Source of the DNA: a virus
IMG/VR virus record: IMGVR_UViG_3300022602_000028
Reading direction: 5' to 3' (one strand)
Length of the DNA stretch: 64,000 nucleotides
In this document: positions 2,495 through 55,710 of the stretch, piece by piece
Numbering within the stretch: the first letter of the stretch is position 1
How the letters are laid out: each line of letters begins with the position of its first letter
Made by a program: the position numbers and the translations under genes
The notes under the pieces: model-generated
Seen by the model: only the letters and a program-made list of their open reading frames with translations
Told to the model about the DNA's origin: nothing
The model's database searches: none

Positions 2495-4150
2495 ATGGGT
2501 CGTTTTGTACCAATTAGTTTTAACACGGTCGGCTTAGAAAAACGTGCTCCAAAAGTTTCTGCGGCTGGTTCAGTAGCGGGAGCAAAGAGCTACTATGACG
2601 GCACACAATGCTGGCAATATAAAGTAGTGTATGATCGTCCAGGATGCTATTGTTTTGTAGTTCCAACGACTGCACTTTGTGCAAGAACAGTTATTGTAGG
2701 CGGTGGTGGCAAACCAATGTGTACAAATGGTAACTGTTGCGGATTTGCTGGAGCAGGCGGAGCATATAGTGAAAAATTTCACTCAGTTACCGGCGGCACT
2801 ACTTATTTTACAATCTGTGTAGGTCGCCAACAACAAAATTCTTCAGTAGCATGTAATGGTAGTGCTGTTCATACAGCGGGTGGTGCATCATATTGCACAC
2901 CAGGTACAGCAAGTGGTGGAGATTTTAACAGTAGTGGCGGCCTTGCTGGTTATAACTGTAATTATTGCGCTGGCTCGGTAAGTCATTATTGCGGAGCTTG
3001 TATCTATACTAATACAACAACATGTTGCGGTTATTGCTTAGTGTTTTCATATACAGATGCACAACATGGTGATACCAATGGTTGCTGTTTAGCTGCCTAT
3101 GCTGGCGGCGGAAGTGCTGGTAGTCCTCGTGCTTGCCAAGGCGGTTGCGGAATGACTGTTTGTAATTCAGGAACCATTAACCACGGAGCTACAGCAGGCG
3201 GCGGTGGTGGTATTGGCGGATTTATTAACGGAAACACATCTACTTATGTATGGGAATTTACTTGCTGTAACTGTGTTTGCCCATGGTTTGACGGCAATGT
3301 CGGCGGCAATTGTCAGTATTGGCGTATCGATTATCCCACAGGCGCAGGTGGTGGCGGTGGAAGTCACAGTTCCCAACCACCTAACTGTCGTAGTTGGGAA
3401 GGTGTGTGCGGAGCTATGTGGTGGGTTGGCGGATGTGGCGGACGAGGCGGCGCCAATGTTAGTCCTAAAGAAGGCGCTCCAAACGTTTATGAATTAACTT
3501 ATCGTTGTCGTTATAACGATAGCTATGGTCAAAGTTGCCCACATTGGAATATGAAATTCCAACCTAAACTTAACGATCCTTGTCGTTATCCATGGTGGGA
3601 TGTTTGTAATATCTCTGGTGCAGGTGCTCCAGGATTTATGAATGAAACTACATATTTCTTCTGTTGCCAGTCAACATTACTAGATGGTTTCTTTGGTCGC
3701 CCAAGTAATGCAGGTGAAGGTGGCGGTACAGGTGGTTGGGTAATGCGTTGTTGCAACATGGATCAGATGGGTGCAATGGTTCCTAAATTTCCTAATAGTC
3801 CAGCTGACGGTATTAACTGGACACTATTATGTTGTTTAGGTAGTCAAGCAGATCCTTTTAGATGTGATGCGGCTTATACACTTAAAGATAAACTATTCAG
3901 CGGCGCAATGACTTGCGCAGGTATTTTAGGAGGTTCAGGTGGCACAGGAGTTTGCTTCTATACTAGTAAAGCAGGATTCGGTGGCGGTGGTGGAACAGCA
4001 AAATGCCATATAACATGTGTATGTTGGGGCGGAAGTTATGACTGTTGCAACGGTTCAGGAGCTCCATTAGCATTTCCACCGTGTTATTTAGATAATTTAG
4101 TTAGCAATGCGGGCTCAGGCTACGCAATCGTATATTGGAAGGAAGCATAA
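2495..4150 (+). CDS. Cys/Gly-rich putative tail adhesin (glycine-rich domain), paralog 1
   Basis: 551 aa, about 49 Cys by manual count; many GGGGG/GGxGG runs; C-terminal AGSGYAIVYW typical of phage glycine-rich fibre-tip domains. Confidence 0.6.
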   Translation: MGRFVPISFNTVGLEKRAPKVSAAGSVAGAKSYYDGTQCWQYKVVYDRPGCYCFVVPTTALCARTVIVGGGGKPMCTNGNCCGFAGAGGAYSEKFHSVTGGTTYFTICVGRQQQNSSVACNGSAVHTAGGASYCTPGTASGGDFNSSGGLAGYNCNYCAGSVSHYCGACIYTNTTTCCGYCLVFSYTDAQHGDTNGCCLAAYAGGGSAGSPRACQGGCGMTVCNSGTINHGATAGGGGGIGGFINGNTSTYVWEFTCCNCVCPWFDGNVGGNCQYWRIDYPTGAGGGGGSHSSQPPNCRSWEGVCGAMWWVGGCGGRGGANVSPKEGAPNVYELTYRCRYNDSYGQSCPHWNMKFQPKLNDPCRYPWWDVCNISGAGAPGFMNETTYFFCCQSTLLDGFFGRPSNAGEGGGTGGWVMRCCNMDQMGAMVPKFPNSPADGINWTLLCCLGSQADPFRCDAAYTLKDKLFSGAMTCAGILGGSGGTGVCFYTSKAGFGGGGGTAKCHITCVCWGGSYDCCNGSGAPLAFPPCYLDNLVSNAGSGYAIVYWKEA

Positions 4151-4151
4151 A

Positions 4152-5795
4152 ATGGGACGTTATATAAGTACAGGTTCTACTCAAATTGGAACAAACTGTT
4201 GTATAGCTTATACAACAACAACTTGCCAGCAGTATCCTGGATTTCAATACTCATATGATCTTAATCAATGTTTTCAAAACAGAGTAATGGTTACTAAACC
4301 AGGAAGCTATTCTTTTGTGCTACCACTAACTAGTACTGGTTGTATTCGTGCAATCGCAGTTGGTGGCGGCGGAAAAGCCTGCTGTAGTGATTTTTATTGT
4401 AATTTTGCTGGGTCGGGCGGTGGATATGCTGAAAGCGTACATTGCGTAGCACCAGGTTGTACATTTACTATCGTAGTAGGTCGTCAGCAAGCTAGTACAA
4501 CAATCAGTTATACTTGCTTAGGCGGAACTGCTCAAACTGTAACAGGAGGCGGCGCAACCGGTCGCACACCTGGAGTAGGCTCAGGCGGAAATTTAATGAA
4601 TAGTACTGGTGGATGCGGTGGTTGGGGACGTAACTATCAAGAAGTTAACGGTACATGCCCAAGTACTTGTATATGTTTTTGCAATACAACTTGCTGTGGA
4701 TATTGTATCATTTACGGTTGTAATTGCCAACAATCTACCTCACAAGATTATTGCGCACACTATTTTCCAGGAGGCGGCAGTGCTGGTAGCTTTATGTTCC
4801 CATGCGGTGGTTGCGGTGGTACAGTGTGTAATAAAGGCGGTACAACAACTAACAATAACAACGGTGGCTCAATGGCCGGCGGTGGCGGCGGCATTGGATA
4901 TATTAACAGATGCTGTAGTATCACTGCATTCTGCGGATGCATCTGTTCTATGTACGGTAACAGCCAACAGCCTTGCGTATGCGGCCCGACAACCGTACAA
5001 GGTGGCGGCGGAACACGTTATGCTTATTTGAACTCAGCTTGCGAACAAACCATGTGGAACGGTTTATGTGAAGGCGGAGTTTGGCGCATGGGCGCAGGTG
5101 GATGGGGTGGTTGTGATAACCAAGAAGGCCGTCCAGACACAATGTATTGGACATGTGCGCTATGCATGTGTACAGGACGTAGTGAGTTTGATGTATGTTG
5201 CGGTATTGCTCCTAAAAAATGGCCATGGTTTGATATTATGGAAATGGCAGGTAGTGGAAGTTCTGGTAAAGGTATTGGCTATTGTCGTCAGCAGATTAAC
5301 CAGGATAACTACTGGACTAGTACTAACGGTAAACAAATGGGTGGTATACCTGAAGATTCGGGCGAAGGCGCAGGAACAGGTGGAGCAATATATCCAGGAT
5401 TATGTGATGCATATTATGTAAACTGGCCATGCTTGCCAAGTAGTGTTCAAACTGGCGGTATTGACTGGAATCAAGTTTGTTGTTTTGGCGTAAATAACAC
5501 TTACAACGATATTTATGATTGCTGTCAATCTAGTCGTAACCTAGTAGTAGGACATATTAGCCAAGCTGGCACATTAGGCGGAAGCGGCGGTATCGGTGTA
5601 CATGGATTTGCAAGTAAAGCAGGATTTGGCGGAGGCGCTGGCGCTTACAAATATTTTGTTCACTGTATTTGTTGGGGAACAGGATATGATTGCTGTGGCG
5701 GTTCAGGACCACTATTGGCATTCCCACCCTGCATATTAGATAATATTGCCAGCAATGCTGGTTCAGGTTTAGCAATAATTTATTGGAAAGATTAA
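4152..5795 (+). CDS. Cys/Gly-rich putative tail adhesin, paralog 2
   Basis: Start moved to ATG 4152 (MGRYIS, matching MGRFVP of paralog 1, 1 nt after its stop). About 52 Cys; shares NTTCCGYC, SKAGFGGG and CxCWGxxYDCCxGSGxxLAFPPCxLDN with paralog 1. Confidence 0.6.
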   Translation: MGRYISTGSTQIGTNCCIAYTTTTCQQYPGFQYSYDLNQCFQNRVMVTKPGSYSFVLPLTSTGCIRAIAVGGGGKACCSDFYCNFAGSGGGYAESVHCVAPGCTFTIVVGRQQASTTISYTCLGGTAQTVTGGGATGRTPGVGSGGNLMNSTGGCGGWGRNYQEVNGTCPSTCICFCNTTCCGYCIIYGCNCQQSTSQDYCAHYFPGGGSAGSFMFPCGGCGGTVCNKGGTTTNNNNGGSMAGGGGGIGYINRCCSITAFCGCICSMYGNSQQPCVCGPTTVQGGGGTRYAYLNSACEQTMWNGLCEGGVWRMGAGGWGGCDNQEGRPDTMYWTCALCMCTGRSEFDVCCGIAPKKWPWFDIMEMAGSGSSGKGIGYCRQQINQDNYWTSTNGKQMGGIPEDSGEGAGTGGAIYPGLCDAYYVNWPCLPSSVQTGGIDWNQVCCFGVNNTYNDIYDCCQSSRNLVVGHISQAGTLGGSGGIGVHGFASKAGFGGGAGAYKYFVHCICWGTGYDCCGGSGPLLAFPPCILDNIASNAGSGLAIIYWKD

Positions 5796-10199: not shown

Positions 10200-11909
10200 A
10201 TGTATCTTTTAGGAATTAATATCGGGCATAATGGAAGCACAGCCCTTTTTAAAGACAGTGAATTAATATTTTACGTCGAAGAGGAACGTTTAACTAGGCA
10301 AAAATACGATGGTAATCCGTTTGCAGGAATAGATTTAGCATTTACGCATACTGACCATATAGATTTTTTAGTTATTTGTTCTACATCGAATAATTTTCCA
10401 ATTACTCCATGGAGTCAAGAAGATGTATACACTTCTGTAGTTAGGAAAAAACAACCAGGTAGACATTTTCAAACAGTTCCAGCAGGCGACATGCATCATA
10501 TGACACATGCGCTAACTGCATTTTATAATAGTGGATTTGATGATGCGGCAGCTTTGGTCATCGATGGCGCTGGCAGCGGTTGCACTGTAGATGAATTTAA
10601 AACATTAACATGGGAAGTTGAATCTATATGGGACTTGTCTTATCCAGCAAACTGTCGAGCAGTATATAAACAATATGGTGCTAATCATTGCGATAGTTTT
10701 GCATTAGAAGAAGATGATGTGCCTATTGAGATTTCCGACGGCCACGGACTTACTAAAGCCTACGAAGCAGTAACACAGTTTTTAGGGTTTCATCCAATCG
10801 AAGCTGGTAAGACTATGGGTCTCGCGCCTTATGGAAAACCAAACGATTCCATTAAAATTAACGATGGTAGATTTACTAATCGTAGTTTTATTAAACCACG
10901 TTTCCCAGCAGGAAATTTCATCCGTGCCGATTTAGATGCAGAGCTAGCTCAGTTAAATGATAAAAAAGAATGGCATGAAGACGAAAGTCTAGTAGGCGAG
11001 TATAGAAAAGATCTTGCGTATGCTGTACAAAAAGCTGCCGAAGAGAGAGTATTTGGTTTGATCCGCAAGACAATCGAAATGACTGGAAAGAAAAAGATTG
11101 TTATGGCCGGAGGCTTTGGTCTAAATTGTGTGGCTAATTATGAGTATCTTAAAGAATTTCCAGATGTAGAATTTTATCACGAACCTATCAGTCATGATGG
11201 CGGAAATGCAATCGGTGTTTGCCAATACATTTATCGTAGTGTTACAGAAGACATGGTTAAAACTCCATTGACTAGTTTGTATCTCGGACCTGTTGATCCT
11301 AAACAGTATGATGATATCGATTATACTGGGTTTGTAACTAAAGACACTACTGCAACTGAAGTGGCACAACTAATTGCCAATGGTAATATTGTTTGTTTAT
11401 ATCAAGGACGTAGCGAAGCTGGTCCCCGAGCATTAGGTAATAGAAGTATTGTTTACGATCCAACTGTATTGAATGGTAAAGATATTGTTAATGAAGTAAA
11501 ACGCAGAGAGTGGTTTAGACCATTTGCAGGATCTGTACTAGCAGAACATGCTAATGATTGGTTTGATTTCCGATCTCGTAGTGATAGTCCGTTTATGATG
11601 TATGCAGTAGATGTTAAAGAAGATAAGCAAAGTATTATTCCTGCCATCACACACGTAGATGGTACTTGCCGTATTCAAACAGTAACAGCAGAACAAAACC
11701 CTAACTATTATGAATTGATTAGTGAATTTAATAAAATTAAAAATGTTCCTATCTTGTTTAATACAAGTTTTAATCTAGCAGGAGATCCTCTAGTTGAAAC
11801 CGTAAAACAAGCCTTAGAAACACTAGCTAATTCAGATTTAAAATATCTTTGGTTGCCCGAGCTAGGAAAACTAATCAGCAAAAGTGACTTTGAAGAAGTT
11901 AATCAGTAA
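10200..11909 (+). CDS. Carbamoyltransferase, NodU/CmcH/TobZ family, full two-domain
   Basis: HHMTHA, IDGAG, AGGFGLNCVAN (Kae1-like N domain) and EAGPRALGNRS, KRREWFRPFA, HVDGTCRIQTV, NTSFN (YrdC-like C domain). Confidence 0.92.
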   Translation: MYLLGINIGHNGSTALFKDSELIFYVEEERLTRQKYDGNPFAGIDLAFTHTDHIDFLVICSTSNNFPITPWSQEDVYTSVVRKKQPGRHFQTVPAGDMHHMTHALTAFYNSGFDDAAALVIDGAGSGCTVDEFKTLTWEVESIWDLSYPANCRAVYKQYGANHCDSFALEEDDVPIEISDGHGLTKAYEAVTQFLGFHPIEAGKTMGLAPYGKPNDSIKINDGRFTNRSFIKPRFPAGNFIRADLDAELAQLNDKKEWHEDESLVGEYRKDLAYAVQKAAEERVFGLIRKTIEMTGKKKIVMAGGFGLNCVANYEYLKEFPDVEFYHEPISHDGGNAIGVCQYIYRSVTEDMVKTPLTSLYLGPVDPKQYDDIDYTGFVTKDTTATEVAQLIANGNIVCLYQGRSEAGPRALGNRSIVYDPTVLNGKDIVNEVKRREWFRPFAGSVLAEHANDWFDFRSRSDSPFMMYAVDVKEDKQSIIPAITHVDGTCRIQTVTAEQNPNYYELISEFNKIKNVPILFNTSFNLAGDPLVETVKQALETLANSDLKYLWLPELGKLISKSDFEEVNQ

Positions 11910-42028: not shown

Positions 42029-42062
42029 ATAGGCCTTAAATAATATTGAGGCCTATTTTTTT
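42029..42062 (+). terminator. Intrinsic terminator with TAAATA spanning the stem end and loop
   Basis: ATAGGCCTT-AAATAATATT-GAGGCCTAT followed by a T run. Confidence 0.75.
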
Positions 42063-42070
42063 CTAACCGG

Positions 42071-42099
42071 TTGACCTTTGATACATGTTAGTGTATACT
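42071..42099 (+). promoter_or_regulatory. sigma70-type promoter for the helicase/replication operon
   Basis: TTGACC-17nt-TATACT. Confidence 0.75.
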
Positions 42100-42108
42100 T
42101 ACTGAATA

Positions 42109-43299
42109 ATGACTATAGATAATTTATTACTAAAAATTGTGAATTTTTCTTCCAAACCTTTGGAGGAATTACTAGCACCGAGAGACTGTAATGTGTTAAG
42201 GAACTTGGCATCTAACATTAACAGTCATTTATTTGTAACTGAAAACCAAAGTCGACTAATAATTAAAATTCTTGGTGAAAATTCGGAAAAATTGTCGGAT
42301 TTTAAAGATGAAATTTTAGAGCAAATTGCGGTACCTTCTTGGTCAAAACCATTTCGCCATATAGAACAAATAAGAAAATTTTATATTAAAAAGAATGACG
42401 AGCATGAACTTGCACTTTTTGTAGAAATGACATTTTCTCAAGAAATTCGTAAAATTTTGCAAAATTTAGCAAAACAGCTAGATGGGCTGGTAGTAGCTCA
42501 TAATACAAAATCTTGGACTTGTACACTTACTGAACAAAATCTTGTTATGCTGTATGAAGCGTTAGAACCATTAAAGTTTGATATCGACGAGACCATAAAA
42601 AACCACTATTTGACCATAAAATCTTGGTCGAAAAGTGAGGTTGAAAAACAGTTCATTATCAGTAACATTGAACATGTTAATTTTCAAAAAGCCATTACTG
42701 CTGACTTAGGTATCGAAACCAGCATTGATCAAAACATCATTAATGACCGTAGTATGCGATATAAGTATACCACCGAAAATCCCCGAAATTTCGGTGAAAA
42801 TTTGACCGAAAATATCGCTAATCGTACTAGTACTAAAATTTGGGTTGATAAAAATCAACACACGTTGACCGAAGTTTTTGATAGTTTGTTAAAATTGAGA
42901 AGATTGCCAGTTATGGTAGTTTTTGATAGTTTTAGCAATTCTAAATATTTGGAAAATCTGGAAATTTTGTCGGAAGCCATGAAAAATGTCGGTATCGACG
43001 ATGGTGTCGGTATTTACTTTAGATTGCCTAATGACGATATTGGAAAAAAATTCAATAATTTTATTGCAGAAAATCATTATAACAAACGCCTCGATGATAC
43101 CTTAATTGTTGCGGCTGTTAGTAGTGGAAAAATACCAAAATTTTTCCTAAAAAACGCATGGCAACCTATGAGTGTAATTGGACTTGATACAAAGATGGGG
43201 TTGCGTCACGGTAAGACTTCAGTGTATACTAACTGCTGTGATTTAATTATAGAGTATGCAGAAGAAAAAAGTATGCTAGAAGGACGTAAGATTTTATGA
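42109..43299 (+). CDS. Hypothetical protein upstream of UvsW
   Basis: 396-aa ORF, ATGA overlap with uvsW; no recognisable motif. Confidence 0.7.
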   Translation: MTIDNLLLKIVNFSSKPLEELLAPRDCNVLRNLASNINSHLFVTENQSRLIIKILGENSEKLSDFKDEILEQIAVPSWSKPFRHIEQIRKFYIKKNDEHELALFVEMTFSQEIRKILQNLAKQLDGLVVAHNTKSWTCTLTEQNLVMLYEALEPLKFDIDETIKNHYLTIKSWSKSEVEKQFIISNIEHVNFQKAITADLGIETSIDQNIINDRSMRYKYTTENPRNFGENLTENIANRTSTKIWVDKNQHTLTEVFDSLLKLRRLPVMVVFDSFSNSKYLENLEILSEAMKNVGIDDGVGIYFRLPNDDIGKKFNNFIAENHYNKRLDDTLIVAAVSSGKIPKFFLKNAWQPMSVIGLDTKMGLRHGKTSVYTNCCDLIIEYAEEKSMLEGRKIL

Positions 43300-44765
43300 C
43301 AGTAAAATTAGTCATTAGAGATGAAGTTAATATTAAATTTGAAGGTTTAAATTTAGAAGCTCGTAAAAAGCTAGCTAATACTTTCAAATATGAAAATCCA
43401 ACTGCACGATATCAACCGGCATACAAATTAGGTCGGTGGGATGGCAAAGTTAGTATGTTTGGGTTAGGCGGTAATGGCTATCTTAGCCAACTAGAAAAAT
43501 GTCTAGAAATACTATCTAACATGGATATTGATATAGACGAACTTGATGATTTACGTACAAATAATAAAATTGAATTCGAAGAAATAACAACACAATACTG
43601 GGCAGATCAAGGCAAGGTGTGGCCCGAAGGTCATAGATTTGCTGGACAACCGATTGTCTTACGTGATGATCAAGTTGATGTAGTAAACAGATTTTTCACC
43701 AATACACAAGCGTTACAAGAAGTTGCTACTGGTGCTGGAAAAACTATTATGACAGCAACATTAAGTCATTGTGCTGAGAAATATGGACGTACTATTGTTA
43801 TTGTGCCTAATAAAGATTTAGTTACGCAAACTGAAGAAGACTATGTTAATGTTGGATTAGATGTCGGTGTATATTACGGAGATCGCAAGGATCTTAATAA
43901 AACACATACCATTTGTACTTGGCAAAGTCTTAATATTTTAGATAAAAAATCTAAAAACTGGGATGAGAATATTGCATTAACACTTGCAGAATTCCTTGAT
44001 GGAGTTAAAACTGTTATTGTCGACGAAGTTCATATGGCCAAAGCAGAAGTACTTAAAAATTTACTTACACAGAACTTGTGTAATGCACCTATTCGCTGGG
44101 GATTAACTGGAACTGTACCGAAAGATGAATATGAATCCGCTCCTATATTTGCTAGCATTGGCCCAGTAGTAGGCGGCATCAAGGCGCACGAATTGCAAGA
44201 GATGGGAATACTTAGTAACTTACATGTTAACATTGTACAGTTGATTGATTTACCAGAATTTAAAACTTATCAGGAAGAATTAAAATATCTTGTCACTAAC
44301 AAAGATAGAATGATTTATTTTAGCAAACTTATAAAAGGCTTATCAGATTCAGGCAATACATTGATTCTAGTTAACAGGATCGATACAGGCAAATTATTAA
44401 CAGAAATGATAGAAGGCGCAGTGTTTATTTCAGGCGAAGTTAAAGGTACCAAACGTAAAGAAGAATACAAAGAACATGCGACTAACGATAATAAAGTTAC
44501 TGTAGCAACTTACGGTGTTGCCGCCGTTGGAATTAACATACCTAGGATTTTTAATTTAGTTCTGTTAGAACCAGGAAAATCATTTGTTCGTGTTATCCAA
44601 AGTATCGGTAGGGGAATTCGTAAAGCAGAAGATAAAGACTTTGTACAAATTTGGGACATAACTTCGACTTGTAAATTTGCAAAACGCCACCTCACTACGA
44701 GGAAGAAATTTTACAAGGACGCCAAATATCCTTTTACAATTGAAAAGATAGATTGGCAAAAATAA
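43296..44765 (+). CDS. uvsW: SF2 DNA helicase UvsW-like
   Basis: VATGAGKT, VDEVH, GLTGT, GINIP, QSIGRGIR. Confidence 0.93.
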   Translation: MTVKLVIRDEVNIKFEGLNLEARKKLANTFKYENPTARYQPAYKLGRWDGKVSMFGLGGNGYLSQLEKCLEILSNMDIDIDELDDLRTNNKIEFEEITTQYWADQGKVWPEGHRFAGQPIVLRDDQVDVVNRFFTNTQALQEVATGAGKTIMTATLSHCAEKYGRTIVIVPNKDLVTQTEEDYVNVGLDVGVYYGDRKDLNKTHTICTWQSLNILDKKSKNWDENIALTLAEFLDGVKTVIVDEVHMAKAEVLKNLLTQNLCNAPIRWGLTGTVPKDEYESAPIFASIGPVVGGIKAHELQEMGILSNLHVNIVQLIDLPEFKTYQEELKYLVTNKDRMIYFSKLIKGLSDSGNTLILVNRIDTGKLLTEMIEGAVFISGEVKGTKRKEEYKEHATNDNKVTVATYGVAAVGINIPRIFNLVLLEPGKSFVRVIQSIGRGIRKAEDKDFVQIWDITSTCKFAKRHLTTRKKFYKDAKYPFTIEKIDWQK

Positions 44766-44771
44766 GGAATT

Positions 44772-45278
44772 ATGAATATATTAACGTTAGATAACCATAC
44801 ATTTTCATTAAATAATCTTCCAGATGAAGTTGATGAAAATACTAGATTTGCTGTATTAGATAACAGCGATCCGAAAGAACCAGATTTTTTCTTCATGCCG
44901 TTAATTTTTCTAGAAAGTTTTAATGCACCTGCAATGGTAATAAGAATTGGAGATGATGAAGTAACAATGCCAATCGATTGGTGTATTGCAGTTGGAGATA
45001 GTAGTGCGGCTAGTGATATAGAAATATTACCATTAACTAGTTTAAATGATCGTGGATTTGATGCATTAATTTTTAATCCGTTGAGTAGTTTTAGAGTAGA
45101 GTTTAAGCGAATTGAAATTGTTAATTTTTATAATGATGTTAAATGGTATTTTCCTAAGATGAAAAACGGGCAGTTGTTAGCAGTTCCTACATCTGGGGGA
45201 TCGAAGCCAAACTGTGCATATTTTGTTAAAGAAATTGCTAGACAAAACGAAATTATATTATTAGACAAATTATTATAA
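44772..45278 (+). CDS. Beta-rich hypothetical protein
   Basis: 168 aa with AAGGA SD, directly after uvsW. Confidence 0.65.
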   Translation: MNILTLDNHTFSLNNLPDEVDENTRFAVLDNSDPKEPDFFFMPLIFLESFNAPAMVIRIGDDEVTMPIDWCIAVGDSSAASDIEILPLTSLNDRGFDALIFNPLSSFRVEFKRIEIVNFYNDVKWYFPKMKNGQLLAVPTSGGSKPNCAYFVKEIARQNEIILLDKLL

Positions 45279-45288
45279 GGAATACATC

Positions 45289-45933
45289 ATGGCATTAAAG
45301 ATTGCATATTTTCAACCTATCATACTATTACAAGATACAGTTCCTCCTGTAGAATTTAGCAAAATTTATAATCTTGTCGAATCGGCTCATCAGCATACAG
45401 AGTTAAATGATTCAGAAAATCCGTTATTAAGTATAAAAGGCGGTAATCAAGTTCAAGTTTATCCTAACGAGTTAGGAGTAGATGTAGGCTGGTTGATTAA
45501 ATGGTTTGAAGAAGCATGTCAAGGTTATATTGAATTGGTCATTGCGCAATCGGGTACTGATGAATTAAAATATGTAGAACCTAAAGTAACTAGTATATGG
45601 ACTATTCGACAAACAGAAGGTGACTATCAAGCAATGCATCATCATCCAGGTGGACACATTAGCGGTAATGTATATGTGACTGCACCTGCTTATGAAGATG
45701 ATAAAAAAAATGTAGATGGAAATATATATTTTAGATTGCCACAGCCTAAAGATTTAACAAAATTTATGATGCATGATAGCTGGAAACATGATGGAGATCC
45801 CGGTACGTTTGTTATATTTCCTAGCTATTTGCCACATACTGTTTATCCTTGGAAAGGCGCCGGTTATCGTACAGTTTTAGCGTTTGATGCAATGTTAGTT
45901 CCTAAACAGGAGTTACTGAATGGGCAAACTTAA
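45289..45933 (+). CDS. Putative 2OG-Fe(II) oxygenase (HxH type)
   Basis: IWTIRQ..GDYQAMHHHP..HISGNVY; VIFPSYLPHTVYP; RTVLAF. Confidence 0.8.
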   Translation: MALKIAYFQPIILLQDTVPPVEFSKIYNLVESAHQHTELNDSENPLLSIKGGNQVQVYPNELGVDVGWLIKWFEEACQGYIELVIAQSGTDELKYVEPKVTSIWTIRQTEGDYQAMHHHPGGHISGNVYVTAPAYEDDKKNVDGNIYFRLPQPKDLTKFMMHDSWKHDGDPGTFVIFPSYLPHTVYPWKGAGYRTVLAFDAMLVPKQELLNGQT

Positions 45934-46207
45934 ACCTGGTGCAACTTATATATATGAGCGTGACAAAGATGTTACTTACGCTCGAGAATTCGGAGCAGAC
46001 CCGGGTACAAGATTTGCGATTGGCTATGGATATGATCCTGAAGAATCAAAAAGATTCGATGTTAGAAGAACTTCTGGTCAGCAAGAACTAGATGATCATA
46101 ATGAATGGATTAAGATCAGGTTAGCCGGAAAAACCAATCCCGCTTTACAAAAAGCCATTGATCGTGTTAAAATGTTATATAAACTAAGCATGGAAAAATA
46201 TGAGTGA
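45920..46207 (+). CDS. Hypothetical protein
   Basis: 95 aa, overlaps both neighbours. Confidence 0.65.
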   Translation: MGKLKPGATYIYERDKDVTYAREFGADPGTRFAIGYGYDPEESKRFDVRRTSGQQELDDHNEWIKIRLAGKTNPALQKAIDRVKMLYKLSMEKYE

Positions 46208-46679
46208 AAAAGTAGAGCTTAAAGAAAAACTTGCGGCAGTAGATCAAAACGTTCGTGAATTGTGGGATGCAATGGATGCTGATCAGCAAAAAGCTCTTAA
46301 AAGTGAATTCTACATTCTTAATCGTTATGTCAGCAATGTGCAAGGACAAAAACGAGAAGTACAAGAACATTTTGTCTTAACTGTAAATGAGTTCTTTAAT
46401 AAGAATTGGAATAGTATACAAAAACATCCTAAATTATTATGGCAACTTTTGTGCATGTGTAGTTATAATGGTAATACTGTATTTTTTCATCAGTGGTTAG
46501 GGCATAAAAAGAAAACAGGCAATGGCGGCAAAAAAGTAAAGTTTTTAGAAGAAATATATCCTACTCATAAAATAGACGAATTAGAATTAATGGCAGAACT
46601 TTCTACAGATAAAGACTTAAAAGATCTTGGCAGACGTCATGGTATGGATGAAGCAACACTTGCAAAGAAACTAAAATGA
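46200..46679 (+). CDS. Possible clamp-loader small subunit (gp62-like)
   Basis: FYILNRYVS...NEFFN..W..IQKHPKLLWQLL resembles gp62-type YMINRxLS; replication context. Confidence 0.4.
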   Translation: MSEKVELKEKLAAVDQNVRELWDAMDADQQKALKSEFYILNRYVSNVQGQKREVQEHFVLTVNEFFNKNWNSIQKHPKLLWQLLCMCSYNGNTVFFHQWLGHKKKTGNGGKKVKFLEEIYPTHKIDELELMAELSTDKDLKDLGRRHGMDEATLAKKLK

Positions 46680-47371
46680 TGGCATTAGTTAGTCAACCTT
46701 TTTCTTGCGATTATTGTAATAAAGGGTTTATGCACGAAAAAACTTTGTTTGTGCATGTGTGCGAACAAAAACGAAGAGCACTAGCTCGAAATGAAAAACA
46801 TGTCTTGTTAGCATTTGATGCATTTCAAAAGTTTTATAAGCAAGCACAGCCACATAGCAAACAGGAAAAAACATATGAAGATTTTTGTAAAAGTCCTTAT
46901 TATAACGCTTTTATTAAGTTTGGTAGTTTTGTCAGTAACGTTAATCCTCTCTACCCGGAAAGATTTACCAATTATATTGTCACCAGTGGAGTCAAACTTG
47001 ACCACTGGTGCAGAGACGAACTCTACGACCTTTATGTCGTCGACCTTGTCCGAAGAGAAACCGTCGAAACAGCACTCCAAAGATCGATCCAAACAATGAT
47101 GTCTTGGGCGGACGAGCATAACGCACAATGGAATCATTATTTTTTATACGCAAGTCTAAGTCGTGCTTGCTATGATATTAAGGATGGAAAAATAAGTCCT
47201 TGGCTAATATTAAATAGTTCTAGTGGTAAAGAGATGCTAAAGAAATTTAATGACGAACAATTAAGTCACATACAAAGTATCATAGATCCTCCATTCTGGC
47301 TTAATAAATTTAAAAAACACCCAGCTGATGCGTTACTGGTCAAAGATGTAGTAAAGGAAAGCGGTATATGA
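46676..47371 (+). CDS. Hypothetical replication-module protein with N-terminal zinc finger
   Basis: CDYCNKGFMHEKTLFVHVC (C2HC-type). Confidence 0.6.
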   Translation: MMALVSQPFSCDYCNKGFMHEKTLFVHVCEQKRRALARNEKHVLLAFDAFQKFYKQAQPHSKQEKTYEDFCKSPYYNAFIKFGSFVSNVNPLYPERFTNYIVTSGVKLDHWCRDELYDLYVVDLVRRETVETALQRSIQTMMSWADEHNAQWNHYFLYASLSRACYDIKDGKISPWLILNSSSGKEMLKKFNDEQLSHIQSIIDPPFWLNKFKKHPADALLVKDVVKESGI

Positions 47372-47532
47372 ATTCACCTATAACTCGTTTATTATCGGAT
47401 GGTACTATTTTGGAAGAAATTCCAGAACAGAATCGATGCCCAGATATATGGAAATTGATAAATCCAGAAACCGAAAATATTTACAACCCTGAGAAGGATG
47501 AACCTAAGATATGGATTCATACAGATTATTAA
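47368..47532 (+). CDS. 54-aa hypothetical protein (not in the ORF track)
   Basis: MNSPITRLLSDG...IWIHTDY*; ATGA overlap upstream, and its stop abuts ATG 47533. Confidence 0.55.
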   Translation: MNSPITRLLSDGTILEEIPEQNRCPDIWKLINPETENIYNPEKDEPKIWIHTDY

Positions 47533-48105
47533 ATGCCTGATATTGATATAGATTTTGCAGATCGCAATAAAGCTCTAGACATAATAAAGCATGTCGATGC
47601 GTCTTTGGATGGAACTTTTAAAAAGCACAACACTGGTATATATTGTACTAACATTCCTTATAATCCGCTAACTGGAATAAGTACTATTGATTACAAAACT
47701 GCTGAAGAGCGTGGATATTTTAAATTAGATTTCTTAAATGTTGGCGTATATGAAGGCGTTCGTGATAAACAACATCTTAATAAATTATTGGAGACAGAGC
47801 CCTTATGGGATCTATTACTAGAAGACGATTTCGTGAACAAACTCTTTCACGTCAACGGGCATGGTTCTATATTGAGACAAGTCAAACCTATCTCGATAGA
47901 ACAATTGGCCGCAGTTTTGGCTATGATTCGCCCTGCGAAACGTTATCTGATAGGGAAAGATTGGACTACGATAATGATGGAAGTTTGGACACGTCCGGAC
48001 AATGATGAATACTATTTTAAGAAAGCTCACGCTATTGCCTACGCACACGTGATAGTAGTACAAATGAATTTAATTTGTGAACAGTTAACGGACTTTTCGA
48101 ACTAG
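47533..48105 (+). CDS. dnaE: Minimal DNA polymerase III alpha (family C) catalytic core
   Basis: MPDIDIDF, KHNTG, GYFKLDFL, MIRPA and YFKKAHAIAYA correspond to DnaE PDxDxDF, HAGG, GLxKxDFL, LxRPG and YGFNKSHxxAY. Confidence 0.85.
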   Translation: MPDIDIDFADRNKALDIIKHVDASLDGTFKKHNTGIYCTNIPYNPLTGISTIDYKTAEERGYFKLDFLNVGVYEGVRDKQHLNKLLETEPLWDLLLEDDFVNKLFHVNGHGSILRQVKPISIEQLAAVLAMIRPAKRYLIGKDWTTIMMEVWTRPDNDEYYFKKAHAIAYAHVIVVQMNLICEQLTDFSN

Positions 48106-49614: not shown

Positions 49615-50586
49615 ATGAGCCTAATTGCGGACACCCTCTTAACATATTTGCCCGGAAAGCGTAAACACACTCCAAGCGGTTGGATTGGGTTTAATGCCGT
49701 GTGTTGCGATGATAAACGCCAACGTGGCGGATTTATTGTTAACGGCGGAGATGCTGTTAGTTATCATTGCTTTAATTGTGGATTCAAATGTAGTTGGCAA
49801 CCTGGCAGACATATCAGTCAAAAGATGAATAAGTTCATGCGGGATTTAAATATTCCCGATGACATCATTGCACAGTTAAGATTAGAAGCACTTAGACTAG
49901 ATGACAATAACACTACAGAAATTCGAAACATAATTCCAAAGTTTGATGTTCGTGCATTGCCCATGGACAGTCAACTGATTACAGACTTATTGTCCGATCC
50001 TCCAGAGAAACTTATACCTGTATTAGAATACATGGTCAATAGAAAAATCTATCCTGAAGATTTTCCTTTCTATTGGACACCCAAAGTTGGATTCAGCAAT
50101 AGACTTATTATTCCATTTTTGTTTAATAATGAAATTGTAGGGTGGACCGCTAGGACTACAGGAGATGCTACACCCAAGTATTTGAGTGAACAACAACCAG
50201 GTTATGTTTTTAATTTAGATAATCAAAAAGATAATCGTGAATTCGTAATTGTTAGCGAAGGTCCGTTTGATGCGCTAAGTATTGATGGCTGTGCATTACT
50301 CGGAGCAGAGATTAAAGACAGCCAAAACTGGTTGTTAAAACAATTAGGCAAAGAGCTTGTCTTAGTTCCTGATAGAGATCACGAAGGTCCTAAAACAGTA
50401 GAGCAAGCAATTGAGTTAGGGTGGAGTGTTAGCATGCCCGCATGGCCTAGTGGTGTTAAAGATATAAATGATGCAATAATTAAGATAGGTCGTCTTGCTA
50501 CACTATGGTTAATTAGAGATGCAACAGAATCTAACGAATTAAAAATTCGTTTAAAAATGAAAAATTGGTTTAAGGATATACAATAA
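49615..50586 (+). CDS. DNA primase (Zn ribbon plus TOPRIM; gp61/DnaG-like)
   Basis: VCCDDK...YHCFNCGF; IVSEGPFDALS; LVPDRD; KDIND. Confidence 0.9.
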   Translation: MSLIADTLLTYLPGKRKHTPSGWIGFNAVCCDDKRQRGGFIVNGGDAVSYHCFNCGFKCSWQPGRHISQKMNKFMRDLNIPDDIIAQLRLEALRLDDNNTTEIRNIIPKFDVRALPMDSQLITDLLSDPPEKLIPVLEYMVNRKIYPEDFPFYWTPKVGFSNRLIIPFLFNNEIVGWTARTTGDATPKYLSEQQPGYVFNLDNQKDNREFVIVSEGPFDALSIDGCALLGAEIKDSQNWLLKQLGKELVLVPDRDHEGPKTVEQAIELGWSVSMPAWPSGVKDINDAIIKIGRLATLWLIRDATESNELKIRLKMKNWFKDIQ

Positions 50587-51008: not shown

Positions 51009-51122
51009 ATGAGAAAAATTATTTGGTGGTTAATGACACCTTATCGTAGATATAAAGAAAAAAAATTGTATGAAGCTAGATTAGCAGAATTACGTAAACG
51101 TGATCCATTTATCTACAAATGA
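51009..51122 (+). CDS. 37-aa basic peptide ending RKRDPFIYK (not in the ORF track)
   Basis: MRKIIWWLMTPYRRYKEKKLYEARLAELRKRDPFIYK*; ATGA-coupled to the next gene. Confidence 0.6.
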   Translation: MRKIIWWLMTPYRRYKEKKLYEARLAELRKRDPFIYK

Positions 51123-52063
51123 TACTTTGGGGAATAAACGCTCTTAATCACGGTTCTAGTCTCGCCGTATTCAAAGAGGGTAAACTAGTATCGCAGACTA
51201 CTAGTACAGCTGACATCTTATCAAATGATCAAACTGTAAATGCGTTAAACTATCATGGCGCACCAGATCGTATCTTTTGGTATGAACGTCCGTGGGTTAA
51301 GAAAGCAAGACAACTCTACGCAGGACAATATAAAACTGCATTAGACATGTCTACATTACCTAAACGACATCTAACTCAATTTAAATATGCAAAAGTATCT
51401 TATACTCCTCATCATGCTAGTCACGCTGCCGCTGGCTATTATACAAGTCCATTTAATCATTGCGCGATTGTTGTGCTCGATGCGATCGGAGAATTTGAAT
51501 GTGCTACCATATGGGAAGGGCACCACGGTGAAATGAAAAAAGTGTGGAGTCGTAGTTATCCACATAGTTTGGGATTATTCTATAGTGCATTTACGCAACT
51601 AGTAGGACTTACTCCGATTAAAGATGAATACTTATTGCAAAAGATGGCAGAACAAGGAGACAAGTGGCGCTATTTTAAAGAAGTTAATAGTTACATAAAC
51701 GGCACAGTTAATTTGAATTATAATTTTCACAGAGGTGTGTTAAACTGGCCGTATCCTATTAATAATTTACAAGATCAGTGTGATATAGCGGCCGCAGTAC
51801 AAGATGCATTTGAAGTGCAAATTGGGTTGGTAACGAGCTTGGCAAAAGAATTAACAGGTGCAGACTGTTTGGTTTACATGGGCGGGTGTGCCATGAATAG
51901 CCAGGCAAATAAACGGTATGTTGAACCTATGTTTAAGTATCGTTGGAGCCTTCCTAATCCGGGGGATCCAAGCAGTAGTATAGGTGCAGTACTATATCAT
52001 ACCAAACAGAGAGTATGGGATTACAAGTGGGATCCTGTCAAACACATTGAAATTAAAGTATAA
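51119..52063 (+). CDS. Carbamoyltransferase N-terminal (Kae1-like) domain only
   Basis: HHASHAAAGYY, LDAIGE, SLGLFYS, GGCAMN, PGDPSSSIGA; no GPRALGNRS C-domain. Confidence 0.85.
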   Translation: MILWGINALNHGSSLAVFKEGKLVSQTTSTADILSNDQTVNALNYHGAPDRIFWYERPWVKKARQLYAGQYKTALDMSTLPKRHLTQFKYAKVSYTPHHASHAAAGYYTSPFNHCAIVVLDAIGEFECATIWEGHHGEMKKVWSRSYPHSLGLFYSAFTQLVGLTPIKDEYLLQKMAEQGDKWRYFKEVNSYINGTVNLNYNFHRGVLNWPYPINNLQDQCDIAAAVQDAFEVQIGLVTSLAKELTGADCLVYMGGCAMNSQANKRYVEPMFKYRWSLPNPGDPSSSIGAVLYHTKQRVWDYKWDPVKHIEIKV

Positions 52064-52080
52064 AGATAATATAATAACAC

Positions 52081-53502
52081 ATGGCACAAAATATAAATTA
52101 TGGATATGAAGTACAGAAATTGTACTTGGAAATGATGCTGAGTGACGCAGAAACTTTTGTGCGTTGCCAAAGCATTTTTGATCACACATTGTTTGATCGC
52201 AAATTACAAGACTCTGCTGAATTTATCAACAAGTATGTAGAAGAGTATAGTGTACTACCTACATTTGACATTGTAAACGCGTCAACTAACAGTAATCTAA
52301 AGACACCCGAGGGCGTAAAAGAAGCCAACTACGATTGGGTGTTAAATGATTTTGAAACTTTTATTAGACACAAAGGACTCGAGCGAGCAATCTTAGAATC
52401 AGCAGACTTGTTGGAAAAAGGCGAGTATGGTCCAGTAGAAGAAAAGATTAAAAAAGCAGTACAAGTGGGCTTACAACGTGATATGGGCACTGATTATTTT
52501 GAAGACCCTAGAGCACGTCTTGCACGTATTAAAGACAAGAACGGACAAATATCGACAGGTTGGAAAAGCATTGATGATAAACTATATGGAGGTTTTAATC
52601 GTGGTGAGCTTAATATTTGGGCTGGTGGCTCAGGCGCTGGCAAGAGTCTTTTCTTGGCTAATCTTGGGGTCAACTATGCTCTTGCTGGGCTTAATGTATT
52701 ATATCTCACATTAGAGTTGAGTGAGGATTTGGTCTGTATGCGTATTGATGCAATGACCACTGGAATCCCTACAAGAGAGATTTTTAAGAACTTAGATGAC
52801 GTTGAAATGAAGGTCAAAGTTATTGGTAAAAAGTCGGGAAAATTGCAGGTAAAATACATGCCATCGGGTAAGACTGCCAACGACATTCGTGCGTATATGA
52901 AAGAGTATGAAGTCAAAATGGGACACAAGATCGATGTGTTGCTAGTTGACTACATGGACTTGATTATGCCTTTGAGCAAACGTATCAGTGCTGAAAACTT
53001 GTTCGTCAAAGACAAGTATGTATCGGAAGAATTACGAAATTTAGCAGTGGAAAAGAACTGTGTGTTTGTAACTGCGGCACAGTTGAATCGTGGTGCTGTT
53101 GAAGAAGTTGAGTTTGATCACAGTCATATTTCAGGCGGACTATCCAAGATTCAAACAGCAGATAACGTGTTTGGTATCTTTACAAGTCGTGCTATGCGTG
53201 AGCGTGGACGTTATCAAATTCAGCTGATGAAAACACGTTCGAGTAGTGGTGTTGGTATGAAAATTGATTTGGAATTTAATATTGATACACTACGTATTTC
53301 AGACTTAGATGAACAAGATGGTTATGGATCAGGATCTGCTAGTGCCGGTAGCGTACTGTTAAACAGTATCAAACAAAGACAAACAGTAAATCCAACAACC
53401 GGTGAAATCGCCGACGGAGCTCCTGCACCTAAGATTCATGCTAAAGTAGAAAGTAGTAAACTAAGAGAATTATTAAATAATTTGCCAGGCGATGATATTT
53501 GA
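52081..53502 (+). CDS. gp41: Replicative helicase DnaB/gp41-like
   Basis: STGWKSIDDKLYGG, Walker A GGSGAGKS, LLVDYMD, TAAQLNR, QLMKTR. Confidence 0.93.
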   Translation: MAQNINYGYEVQKLYLEMMLSDAETFVRCQSIFDHTLFDRKLQDSAEFINKYVEEYSVLPTFDIVNASTNSNLKTPEGVKEANYDWVLNDFETFIRHKGLERAILESADLLEKGEYGPVEEKIKKAVQVGLQRDMGTDYFEDPRARLARIKDKNGQISTGWKSIDDKLYGGFNRGELNIWAGGSGAGKSLFLANLGVNYALAGLNVLYLTLELSEDLVCMRIDAMTTGIPTREIFKNLDDVEMKVKVIGKKSGKLQVKYMPSGKTANDIRAYMKEYEVKMGHKIDVLLVDYMDLIMPLSKRISAENLFVKDKYVSEELRNLAVEKNCVFVTAAQLNRGAVEEVEFDHSHISGGLSKIQTADNVFGIFTSRAMRERGRYQIQLMKTRSSSGVGMKIDLEFNIDTLRISDLDEQDGYGSGSASAGSVLLNSIKQRQTVNPTTGEIADGAPAPKIHAKVESSKLRELLNNLPGDDI

Positions 53503-53559: not shown

Positions 53560-54006
53560 ATGCAATTACATCATATCCGAGACATCAGTGATCCTCTGAC
53601 CAGACTTATCAAGGACGACCCAGTACGTCCACATATTCCTTTAGAACAACGTATCAACGAAGCCGCTGAAATTTTAATTCTTAAAGCAGGAGAAGAAGTA
53701 CTAGCCGCTACTTGTATGCAATGGTTGAGCGACATTCCTTCTACTGAGGAAGATTTAATTAACATGGGTAAAGACCGCAATACCGCAGTATTTTATACTA
53801 TTTGGAGTTACAGTCCTGGAGCTGGTCAGGAGCTAATCAAGCAGGCCGCACGTTGGATTTTGGACGAGTACAAGGAAGTTAAAAACATTGTAACGCTAAG
53901 TCCTCAGACCCCTATGGCACGCCGTTTTCATTTAAAGAATGGCGCTGAAGTTTACAAAGAAAATTCTACTAGTGTAAACTATCGTTACTACACAAAACAA
54001 GATTAA
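53560..54006 (+). CDS. GNAT-fold protein resembling the malonyl-CoA decarboxylase catalytic domain
   Basis: AVFYTIWSYSPGAGQELI...IVTLSP...RRFHLKNGA; GATAAGTA upstream. Confidence 0.5.
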   Translation: MQLHHIRDISDPLTRLIKDDPVRPHIPLEQRINEAAEILILKAGEEVLAATCMQWLSDIPSTEEDLINMGKDRNTAVFYTIWSYSPGAGQELIKQAARWILDEYKEVKNIVTLSPQTPMARRFHLKNGAEVYKENSTSVNYRYYTKQD

Positions 54007-54548
54007 TAACTGTCTAGCGGTATACTAATATTACCGGCTAGCACTATACGTTCTGTAGATGCTTGGCTCGGAGGAACAGCATGATTCATCCAACCAGGGA
54101 ACATGATCAGCATGCCAGTATTTGGAATAATTTCTTGCTCTATATCTGTTAGCAGTAATGGAGCAATGTTATCTCCAATAGCTTGCAGATAATAAACAAA
54201 ACTGATTTGAGCTTGTCTGTGTTGATGCGTTTTAGTAAAATCTTTTTGATTGTATATAGCGCCCCACATGTCGAATATACTATATTGAAATGGCCCGGGA
54301 ACACCACCTAGCATATTACTCCACGTATCAATAAGATTTGCATTTAAAAAATTAAAAAAATCCTGGTAAGGATCTTGATCTTGGGGCAGTTTTAATCGCC
54401 AGTTGGTCATATAGGCCTGTACATTAGTCTGTCTAGTTTGACTGCCGCCTTCGGCACGAATCATATCAATAGTGGCAATATTGAATGCCATATTGTCATA
54501 CTGATAGATATTAAAAAATTTACTAGTGGGTAAAGTTAATTCTTGCAT
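54003..54548 (-). CDS. Putative 2OG-Fe(II) oxygenase, tandem paralog 3
   Basis: MWGAIY..KD...HQH...ISFVYYL...MFPGWMNHAVP...RIVLAGN. Confidence 0.85.
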   Translation of the reverse strand: MQELTLPTSKFFNIYQYDNMAFNIATIDMIRAEGGSQTRQTNVQAYMTNWRLKLPQDQDPYQDFFNFLNANLIDTWSNMLGGVPGPFQYSIFDMWGAIYNQKDFTKTHQHRQAQISFVYYLQAIGDNIAPLLLTDIEQEIIPNTGMLIMFPGWMNHAVPPSQASTERIVLAGNISIPLDSY

Positions 54549-55111
54549 TACATTGCTATTTCACAGTTACCCGCTAGCACAATGCGCTCGCTACTATCAC
54601 CGGGTTCAAATTTAGGAACGCTATGCCCTAGCCAACTAGGAAACATAATTAGTTGCCCAGTAGCTGGTATAATTTCGTATCCAGTATTATCAAAAACTAA
54701 AGGCGAGTTTTTGCCTGTAGTTTGATCAGCTTGTAGATAATAAACCCAACTGGTTCTACTGGGTCCATGTGTATGATAGTCTGCCCAGTCGCCCTGTTGA
54801 TATATAGCACCCCACATACTGCTAATGCGATATCTTAAAGGTTCTGGAGGAGCAGTTTCACACAATAAATTACCCCAAGCATCTTCTAAACTTTTTTTTA
54901 AGAAACTAAAAAATCTGCTCTGCGGATCAGCATTATGATCTATTTTTAATGCCCAAGTAACCGCGGCTTGAACATTGCTGGGTCGCCTGTTTCTTACAGC
55001 TTCATCTCTAATTATCTTGATCAAAGCTTCATCAGATTCTGGATCATGCACTTGATAAATGTTCACAAAGCGTTTAAGATAAAAATCAATACGGGCGTTT
55101 GGGTCTATCAT
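54548..55111 (-). CDS. Putative 2OG-Fe(II) oxygenase, tandem paralog 2
   Basis: MWGAIY..GD...HTH...SWVYYL...MFPSWLGHSVP...RIVLAGN. Confidence 0.85.
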   Translation of the reverse strand: MIDPNARIDFYLKRFVNIYQVHDPESDEALIKIIRDEAVRNRRPSNVQAAVTWALKIDHNADPQSRFFSFLKKSLEDAWGNLLCETAPPEPLRYRISSMWGAIYQQGDWADYHTHGPSRTSWVYYLQADQTTGKNSPLVFDNTGYEIIPATGQLIMFPSWLGHSVPKFEPGDSSERIVLAGNCEIAM

Positions 55112-55710
55112 AGCATCTCAATGTTGCCAGCTAAAACGATACGATCATTCACGCTGAGTGGTTTGTAAGGAGGCACATGATGTGTAAGCCATCCTGGGCA
55201 CATGACCAGCATGCCGGTCTTGGGTGTAATACTGTAGTCAATTTCATCAAATACCAAAGGACTAGAATCTATAGGATCTGCCATGAGATAATAGACAAAA
55301 CTTATTTGAGTGGGCGCATGACTATGCGATTGAGTATAGTCGCCATCTTTATAAATTGCACCCCACATGTTGGCAAATCTATAGCGTATTTTTTCTTTAG
55401 TAACGCCCGATAGCTTGTGTATGCTTGTGGTCAAACTATTGTTGATAAAGGCAAAAAAATCACTGTAAGGTTCTGCGTTATGATCTAGTTTAAGTATCCA
55501 ATCGGTCATATAGGCTTTAACCACAGTTTCTCTAGTAAGAGTACCGCCTTCTTCTCTGATAGCTCGTATGATAGCTTCATTGCAGGCCTTGTTGTCGTAT
55601 TGATAAATGTTGATAAATCTAGTCATGTTAAATGTAACACGACGAATTGGTTCTGGTTGCAAGGCTTTAATCTTATTATATGCTAGCGGAGTAAGAGGTA
55701 TCTTAGGCAT
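55108..55710 (-). CDS. Putative 2OG-Fe(II) oxygenase, tandem paralog 1
   Basis: MWGAIY..GD...HSH...ISFVYYL...CPGWLTHHVP...RIVLAGN. Confidence 0.85.
   Translation of the reverse strand: MPKIPLTPLAYNKIKALQPEPIRRVTFNMTRFINIYQYDNKACNEAIIRAIREEGGTLTRETVVKAYMTDWILKLDHNAEPYSDFFAFINNSLTTSIHKLSGVTKEKIRYRFANMWGAIYKDGDYTQSHSHAPTQISFVYYLMADPIDSSPLVFDEIDYSITPKTGMLVMCPGWLTHHVPPYKPLSVNDRIVLAGNIEML

Follow-up and report, generated by a model that had tools for sequence, protein, structure and literature searches.

A 190-residue jumbo-phage protein as the C-terminal unit of a split minimal DNA polymerase III alpha

Polymerases of the C family are large bacterial replicases of more than 1000 residues, and in cyanobacteria one of them, DnaE, is encoded by two distant genes whose products are joined into a full-length DnaE through splicing of the split-intein segments that they carry. 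A further arrangement was described by Iyer, Anantharaman, Krishnan, Burroughs and Aravind (2021; Viruses 13:63; PMC7824862), who reported a minimal Pol III alpha in the group 2.2 jumbo phages, with RaK2, PA5oct and Atu_ph07 as examples. There two distant genes encode the enzyme, one for an N-terminal protein that binds NTP and one for a C-terminal protein that binds Mg2+ and template; the enzyme was found alongside a classic family B polymerase, and an auxiliary role was suggested for it. In the paper on Atu_ph07 (PMC6102473), alpha and epsilon subunits are annotated. No bench or biochemical test of the split family was found in the literature searched.

The ORF at 47533-48105 in the window (the whole 64-kb stretch of DNA analysed here, G+C 38.8%) is the C-terminal unit, hereafter C-unit, of such a split enzyme. 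The split family has been known since 2021 from sequence analysis, and the window, which belongs to an uncultured freshwater jumbo-phage population, adds one more intact member. This C-unit is like those of Iyer et al. in family profile, length, start at the PDxDxD motif and surrounding gene block, and the relatives of the window phage share both the separate N-terminal unit (N-unit) and the accompanying family B polymerase. On the other hand, it differs from the cultured-phage copies in sequence (40-53% identity to those in 96 phage records), in its uncultured freshwater source, and in the presence of a 54-aa ORF after the neighbouring zinc-finger gene.

The C-unit gene runs from an ATG start to a TAG stop, and the motifs of its product follow one another as they do in DnaE: M1-P-D3-I-D5-I-D7-F, H32-x-x-G35, K64-L-D66-F-L, R133-P134 and F162-K-K-A-H166-A-I-A-Y170, among which D3, D5, D7, K64, D66, R133, P134, K163 and H166 are the residues of note. 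About 55 residues separate the DxD strand from the KxD strand. A HMMER comparison with M. tuberculosis DnaE1, itself weak (E 0.05), placed the motifs colinearly, with MPDIDIDF identical at residues 413-420, KxDFL and RP within 565-664, and KSHA near 780. The sole Pfam match was to the finger domain PF17657 (E 0.19; 11.5 bits against a cut-off of 22), and the C-unit alone fell below every Pfam DnaE cut-off, that of PF07733 included. In contrast to these weak scores, PHROG 11778 ("DNA polymerase", 197 positions) matched residues 3-185 on its positions 8-195 with an E-value of 5.9e-68.

An AlphaFold2 model of the C-unit, built on an alignment of 86 homologues, reached a pLDDT of 96.5, and the top 17 Foldseek matches to this model were all Pol III alpha or PolC (probability 1.0). 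In VIA-align comparisons it superposed on residues 461-841 of Taq Pol III alpha with a Z-score of 9.8 (rmsd 3.8, 186 residues aligned), on residues 400-781 of E. coli DnaE with a Z-score of 8.9 and on PolC with a Z-score of 9.5, compared with 3.0 for the best unrelated chain. Pairwise sequence scores being weak, it is the PHROG 11778 profile, the confidence of the model and the restriction of structural matches to the C family that together settle the homology. As the first-pass annotation had proposed, this is an intact ORF carrying DnaE motifs in DnaE order. The absence of PHP, clamp-binding and OB domains, also proposed there, was borne out: 186 of the 190 residues align, spread over a DnaE span of about 380 residues; no Pfam match to PHP was obtained in the C-unit or the neighbouring ORFs, the ORF starting at the catalytic PDxDxD; and the protein ends near the equivalent of E. 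coli DnaE residue 781, with the thumb, HhH/beta-clamp-binding and OB parts absent. Its description as a polymerase stripped to the catalytic core, however, has to be amended, since the N-terminal half of the palm with its GRGSS loop is missing. According to the model, the C-unit comprises the proximal fingers and one half of the catalytic palm, and falls short of a complete catalytic core.

At least six contigs, each assembled independently from a different JGI or ENA metagenome sample, contain the gene with the same nucleotides. For three of these, a full comparison with the window gave about 99.9% identity along some 19 kb, and the protein is present in 42 blocks of the metagenome collection. 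The identity of the gene in six assemblies, together with flanks that match at about 99.9%, excludes the frameshift or misassembly that had been named as a possible disguise of a full-length dnaE. In a library of 1.84 billion representatives the C-unit matched 430 clusters (50%-identity representatives), and the majority of the full-length homologues listed are stand-alone proteins of 185-215 aa. Across 86 representatives of the 50%-identity clusters, D3, D5, D7, H32, G35, K64, D66, R133, P134, K163 and H166 are conserved at 90-100%, with the catalytic residues at 95-100%, and the same key residues are invariant in 81 closer IMG/VR relatives. The median pairwise dN/dS among these 81 relatives is 0.094, a value calculated with dS close to saturation. 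Judged from these sequences the C-unit is under strong purifying selection; relaxed selection on the catalytic Asp residues, raised earlier as a possible objection, is contradicted by this ratio and by the invariance of the residues.

The 96 phage records matched by tblastn with the C-unit all belong to RaK2-like, PA5oct-like, Atu_ph07, Phosso, SCTP-2 and similar jumbo phages, and the copy in Sinorhizobium phage Phosso is annotated as "DnaE-like DNA polymerase III alpha". At the nucleotide level, megablast with 8 kb returned no match in the phage collection, and a search of IMG/VR for an exact 41-mer was negative. The link to RaK2-like jumbo phages made in the first-pass annotation was correct, as seen both in these records and in gene order. 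The block kept in Phosso, RaK2 and PAC2 consists of UvsW, small ORFs, the zinc-finger gene, the C-unit, a reverse gene of about 120 aa, a virion protein, primase and DnaB-type helicase; the position of UvsW corresponds to the same gene order in RaK2 and PAC2, and the place of the reverse gene is the same in all three phages. The window contains a T4-type set for recombination and replication, consisting of a gene at the gp32 position, UvsX, UvsW, primase and DnaB. The features of the block are collected in Table 1. The 3' end of the convergent gene overlaps that of the C-unit gene by 21 nt.

Table 1. Features of the C-unit locus in the 64-kb window
Feature	Coordinates	Strand	Basis and remarks
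UvsW-type helicase	43296..44765	+	Pfam DEAD/ResIII/Helicase_C on an identical gene; upstream edge of the conserved block
Zinc-finger gene, 231 aa	46676..47371	+	PHROG 11058 (E 7e-63); candidate accessory factor
Linking ORF, 54 aa	47368..47532	+	Sequence; present in only some relatives
C-unit (split minimal Pol III alpha, C-terminal, Mg2+-/template-binding), 190 aa	47533..48105	+	ORF, PHROG 11778, AlphaFold2 model
Convergent gene, 124 aa	48085..48459	-	PHROG 11637; conserved neighbour
Primase (Toprim-type)	49615..50586	+	Faint Pfam Toprim_2; syntenic to the annotated DNA primase in Phosso, RaK2 and PAC2
DnaB-type replicative helicase	52081..53502	+	Pfam DnaB_C; syntenic with the helicase in Phosso, RaK2 and PAC2

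Some further elements of this region were recorded. Just before ORF 42109 there is a promoter-like TTGACC-17-TATACT (42071-42099), preceded by a hairpin resembling a terminator (42029-42056), and the C-unit may lie in a transcription unit spanning 42109-48105; these are consensus matches only, and shuffled sequence yielded overall counts at least as high. Scattered among the replication genes, at 45289-45933 (+), 54003-55710 (-), 51119-52063 (+) and 10200-11909 (+), are two ORFs whose N-termini are similar and four 2OG-Fe(II) oxygenase-like genes, of which three form a tandem array on the minus strand. The ORF at 51119 has a carbamoyltransferase-N Pfam match, and it and the oxygenase-like genes may encode enzymes of nucleotide or DNA modification.

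The half of the palm that the C-unit lacks was found at a distance in its relatives. A PF07733 search of whole phage records returned one N-unit each, above the curated cut-off, in RaK2, PAC2 and Phosso; these proteins have 169-177 aa, end in ...WGVGRGSSVASY...EFL(K/N)-stop, and their genes are separated from that of the C-unit by 34 kb to more than 200 kb. N-units of 168-176 aa, also above the PF07733 cut-off, were present in the three largest close IMG/VR relatives, whose C-units are 71-77% identical to that of the window, and in one of these, G002, the N-unit is of the 168-aa type with a GRGSS...WREFLR end. An N-unit was seen in all six of these large relatives; two smaller IMG/VR relative fragments were also searched and gave none. 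The N-units carry the GRGSS nucleotide-binding loop of the palm and stop at EFL(K/R/N), exactly where DnaE proceeds into PDxDxD, and it is this GS-loop half that is lacking in the C-unit and in every one of its neighbours. In metagenomes the N-unit family comprises at least 8000 clusters at 90% identity, and among cultured phages it accompanies the C-unit in jumbo phages of enterobacteria, Pseudomonas and Xanthomonas and is also present in phages with a full-length DnaE.

Three N-units used as tblastn queries against the 64-kb window yielded nothing above noise (best E 0.16), and neither these searches nor the profile searches revealed DnaE similarity in an adjacent ORF, in agreement with the earlier reading that no neighbour supplies the missing domains. 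The partners suggested at the time, the ORFs at 46200, 46676 and 42109, can be set aside: they have no DnaE similarity, ORF 42109-43299 having no family match at all, and the partner in the relatives is the distant PF07733-positive protein of about 168-177 aa. ORF 44772-45278, which contains a GGS motif, was considered as an N-unit and dropped, because it has no PF07733 match and belongs to the unrelated PHROG 11279. The metagenomic proteins P0170, P0124, P0406 and P0403 were likewise rejected as the cognate N-unit, as all come from other samples, and a 190-aa ORF upstream of an N-unit in locus L013, examined as a second C-unit, proved to be similar in length and unrelated. By analogy with the relatives, the genome from which the window derives would be expected to encode both an N-unit and a family B polymerase.

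The two halves also occur fused in nature. The protein P0356 (375 aa; locus L110:1066-2193) contains an N-unit and a C-unit in one chain, with a linker of 8 residues, and the match to PF07733 spans the junction between them. It is known from a single 2.4-kb ENA metagenome contig and is the only fused form among the 150 best representatives; no further fusion of N-unit and C-unit was found in IMG/VR. The gene downstream of P0356 in L110 is a weak homologue of the reverse gene that follows the C-unit in the window. Based on a verified alignment (A7) covering both halves, from which the linker was also read, AlphaFold2 predicted a single compact fold (pLDDT 89, pTM 0.87). In this model 343 of the 375 residues superpose on M. 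tuberculosis DnaE1 with a Z-score of 21.6 and 340 residues on Taq Pol III alpha with a Z-score of 20.5, the fold resembling solved DnaE structures that the predictor had already seen, and the next matches after the C family are Cid1, the CCA-adding enzyme and poly(A) polymerases, with Z-scores of 2-3.8. The fusion model supports a composite active site, in which the GS loop would come from the N-unit and the C-unit would contribute the finger motifs, the Lys and the metal ligands. P0356 itself could be either an unsplit ancestral state or a secondary fusion. The DnaE range aligned with this model (m25460717268f) begins at DnaE residue 11-14, inside the PHP domain, and the first ~90 residues of the N-unit, which are poorly conserved, may on the evidence of the model be a vestige of PHP or its linker.

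We consider it likely that the C-unit works as one half of a split mini Pol III, with the separate N-unit as the other half, and that the product is an auxiliary DNA-templated polymerase. In the proposed enzyme the C-unit would supply the beta-strands with the metal-binding D3, D5 and D66 and the adjacent K64, and would add the proximal fingers, in which R133-P134 and K163/H166 would represent the DnaE motifs around the incoming dNTP and the template; on its own it would amount to half an active site. Most likely it pairs non-covalently, without an intein, with the separate N-unit of about 168 aa (end ...WGVGRGSSVASY...EFL(R/K)), from which the nucleotide-phosphate-binding GS loop and the palm helices would come. 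The resulting C-family polymerase core would comprise about 360 residues, be devoid of PHP, thumb, clamp-binding/HhH and OB domains, and serve the replication/recombination module as an auxiliary and probably poorly processive DNA-templated dNTP polymerase rather than as the main replicase. The physical pairing, the catalytic activity and the biological role are what we infer here; it is uncertain that the pair alone, without the thumb and HhH part, would synthesize DNA processively, and the auxiliary role is a guess, as it was in Iyer et al. (2021).

With DnaE and PolC (PDB 2hnh, 3e0d, 5lew, 3f2c) this putative enzyme shares the palm strands bearing three Asp residues and a Lys, in colinear order, and the finger motifs RP and (N/K)K(S/A)H, the likeness in fold being expressed in Z-scores of 9-10 for the C-unit half and 20-21 for the fused form. 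However, DnaE and PolC have more than 1000 residues in one chain, whereas the mini enzyme would have about 360 in two polypeptides, and would do without PHP, thumb, beta-clamp-binding/HhH part, OB fold and tau-binding tail. The intein-split DnaE of cyanobacteria is likewise a C-family polymerase from two distant genes. There are no split-intein segments in the phage proteins, the N-units ending at EFL(K/R/N)-stop and the C-unit beginning at MPDIDIDF. As the N-units stop at EFL(K/R) and the C-unit starts at the catalytic motif, there is no room for an intein; in contrast to the cyanobacterial case, the break falls inside the palm and the product would stay minimal.

The reading as an auxiliary enzyme is based on the relatives, which also encode a family B polymerase and in which the mini enzyme is accordingly not taken for the main replicase. 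The family B polymerase has 890-892 aa in two IMG/VR relatives (G002 and G003) and about 1000 aa (up to 1013) in RaK2 and Phosso, and in PAC2 the match is split over two ORFs; none was found among the window ORFs examined. The PAC2 match (phage vB_Pa-PAC2, PP408249.1, 202949-206726) falls on ORFs of 825 and 379 aa about 2.5 kb apart, which points to interruption of the gene by an insertion, a situation also found in some T4-like phages.

Four other explanations of the 190-aa protein were weighed against the split auxiliary polymerase. One of them, already offered in the first-pass annotation, is a nucleotidyltransferase with a polymerase ancestor that no longer copies DNA, here in two pieces, and that would serve untemplated addition, synthesis of a signalling or anti-defence nucleotide, or RNA tailing. 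The palm indeed has a Pol beta-like fold, and the mini enzyme has in common with Cid1, the CCA-adding enzyme and the poly(A) polymerases, the nearest neighbours of the fused model outside the C family, not only this fold but the GS loop, the DxD strand and a third acidic residue; all the parts that hold primer-template DNA (thumb, HhH, clamp-binding) are missing, and the relatives already possess a family B polymerase. This structural likeness is nevertheless distant compared with the match to DnaE and PolC over about 340 residues, and the finger motifs for dNTP and template (R133-P134 and F-K-K-x-H166-x-x-x-Y), which are DnaE-specific, are 90-100% conserved, a conservation that extends beyond the metal ligands; moreover, the gene always lies between those of the UvsW helicase and of the primase and DnaB. 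We regard loss of DNA copying as unlikely. That the mini Pol III, made of N-unit and C-unit and perhaps more subunits, is the main replicative polymerase seems to us quite improbable. It would fit its universal presence in the group, its place inside the replication module and the great size of the family in metagenomes, with the N-unit and C-unit cluster numbers given above, but the relatives have, besides T4-type gp32, UvsX, UvsW, primase and helicase, an intact family B polymerase of 890-1013 aa, clamp-binding, thumb and proofreading domains are all lacking in the mini enzyme, and a DnaQ-like exonuclease was found in only two of the five relatives searched. The earlier suggestion of a subunit of a split replicase holds as regards the split, and is doubtful as regards the replicase.

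The two remaining explanations would do without a distant partner. Confident folding of the C-unit by itself, and its translational coupling to the upstream zinc-finger gene and not to the N-unit, could be taken to mean that the 190-aa protein acts alone or with its immediate neighbours. Against this, the GS-loop half of the palm is missing from the C-unit and from every neighbour, the N-unit co-occurs in every sufficiently complete relative, and the two are fused in P0356; we hold action without the N-unit to be very improbable. As for a fragment of a full-length dnaE produced by frameshift, assembly error or decay, nothing other than the small size speaks for it, whereas the nucleotide-identical copies in six independent assemblies and the occurrence of the protein in 42 collection blocks, the predominance of homologues of 185-215 aa among the 430 representatives, a dN/dS of about 0.09 with invariant catalytic residues, and flanking ORFs without DnaE similarity in any frame all speak against it, leaving this explanation virtually no weight.

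The split auxiliary polymerase may have a companion in the product of the upstream zinc-finger gene. In this protein a zinc finger of the form C-x2-C-x12-H-x-C stands at the N-terminus and a helical domain comes after it; the finger alone matches solved C2H2 fingers, and for the part beyond it neither a sequence match among solved structures nor a named Atlas cluster was obtained. Phage records containing the gene number 92 and cover the same range of hosts as those of the C-unit; the gene lies directly upstream of the C-unit in about 80 IMG/VR relatives as well as in Phosso, PAC2 and RaK2. The 54-aa ORF is missing from at least 30 relatives, in which the stop of the zinc-finger gene and the start of the C-unit overlap in the sequence TAATG. 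In the window, the start of the 54-aa ORF overlaps the zinc-finger stop (ATGA) and its TAA abuts the C-unit ATG (TAAATG); this small ORF has no family match and is absent wherever the zinc-finger gene abuts the C-unit. One could imagine a three-part enzyme in which the zinc-finger protein replaces the missing thumb/HhH part and tethers the core of N-unit and C-unit to primer-template DNA, an idea we consider doubtful and which, if true, would amount to a minimal modular C-family polymerase unlike any characterised. All phages with the zinc-finger gene and C-unit side by side form one syntenic clade, and the adjacency is for this reason a lead for an accessory DNA-binding subunit, and no proof of binding.

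A two-gene core of about 360 residues, conserved and strongly selected beside a T4-type family B polymerase, raises the question of how small a working C-family polymerase can be, and a second question of why a phage retains a second polymerase. Members of the split family are plentiful in metagenomes from fresh water and the sea, where they form thousands of sequence clusters, and the natural fused form and the constantly adjacent zinc-finger gene are added here as leads. At a distance from the locus, the region 2495-5795 of the window contains two large ORFs (551 and 562 aa) that are very rich in Gly and Cys, with GGG/GSG repeats, in what is apparently a structural region.
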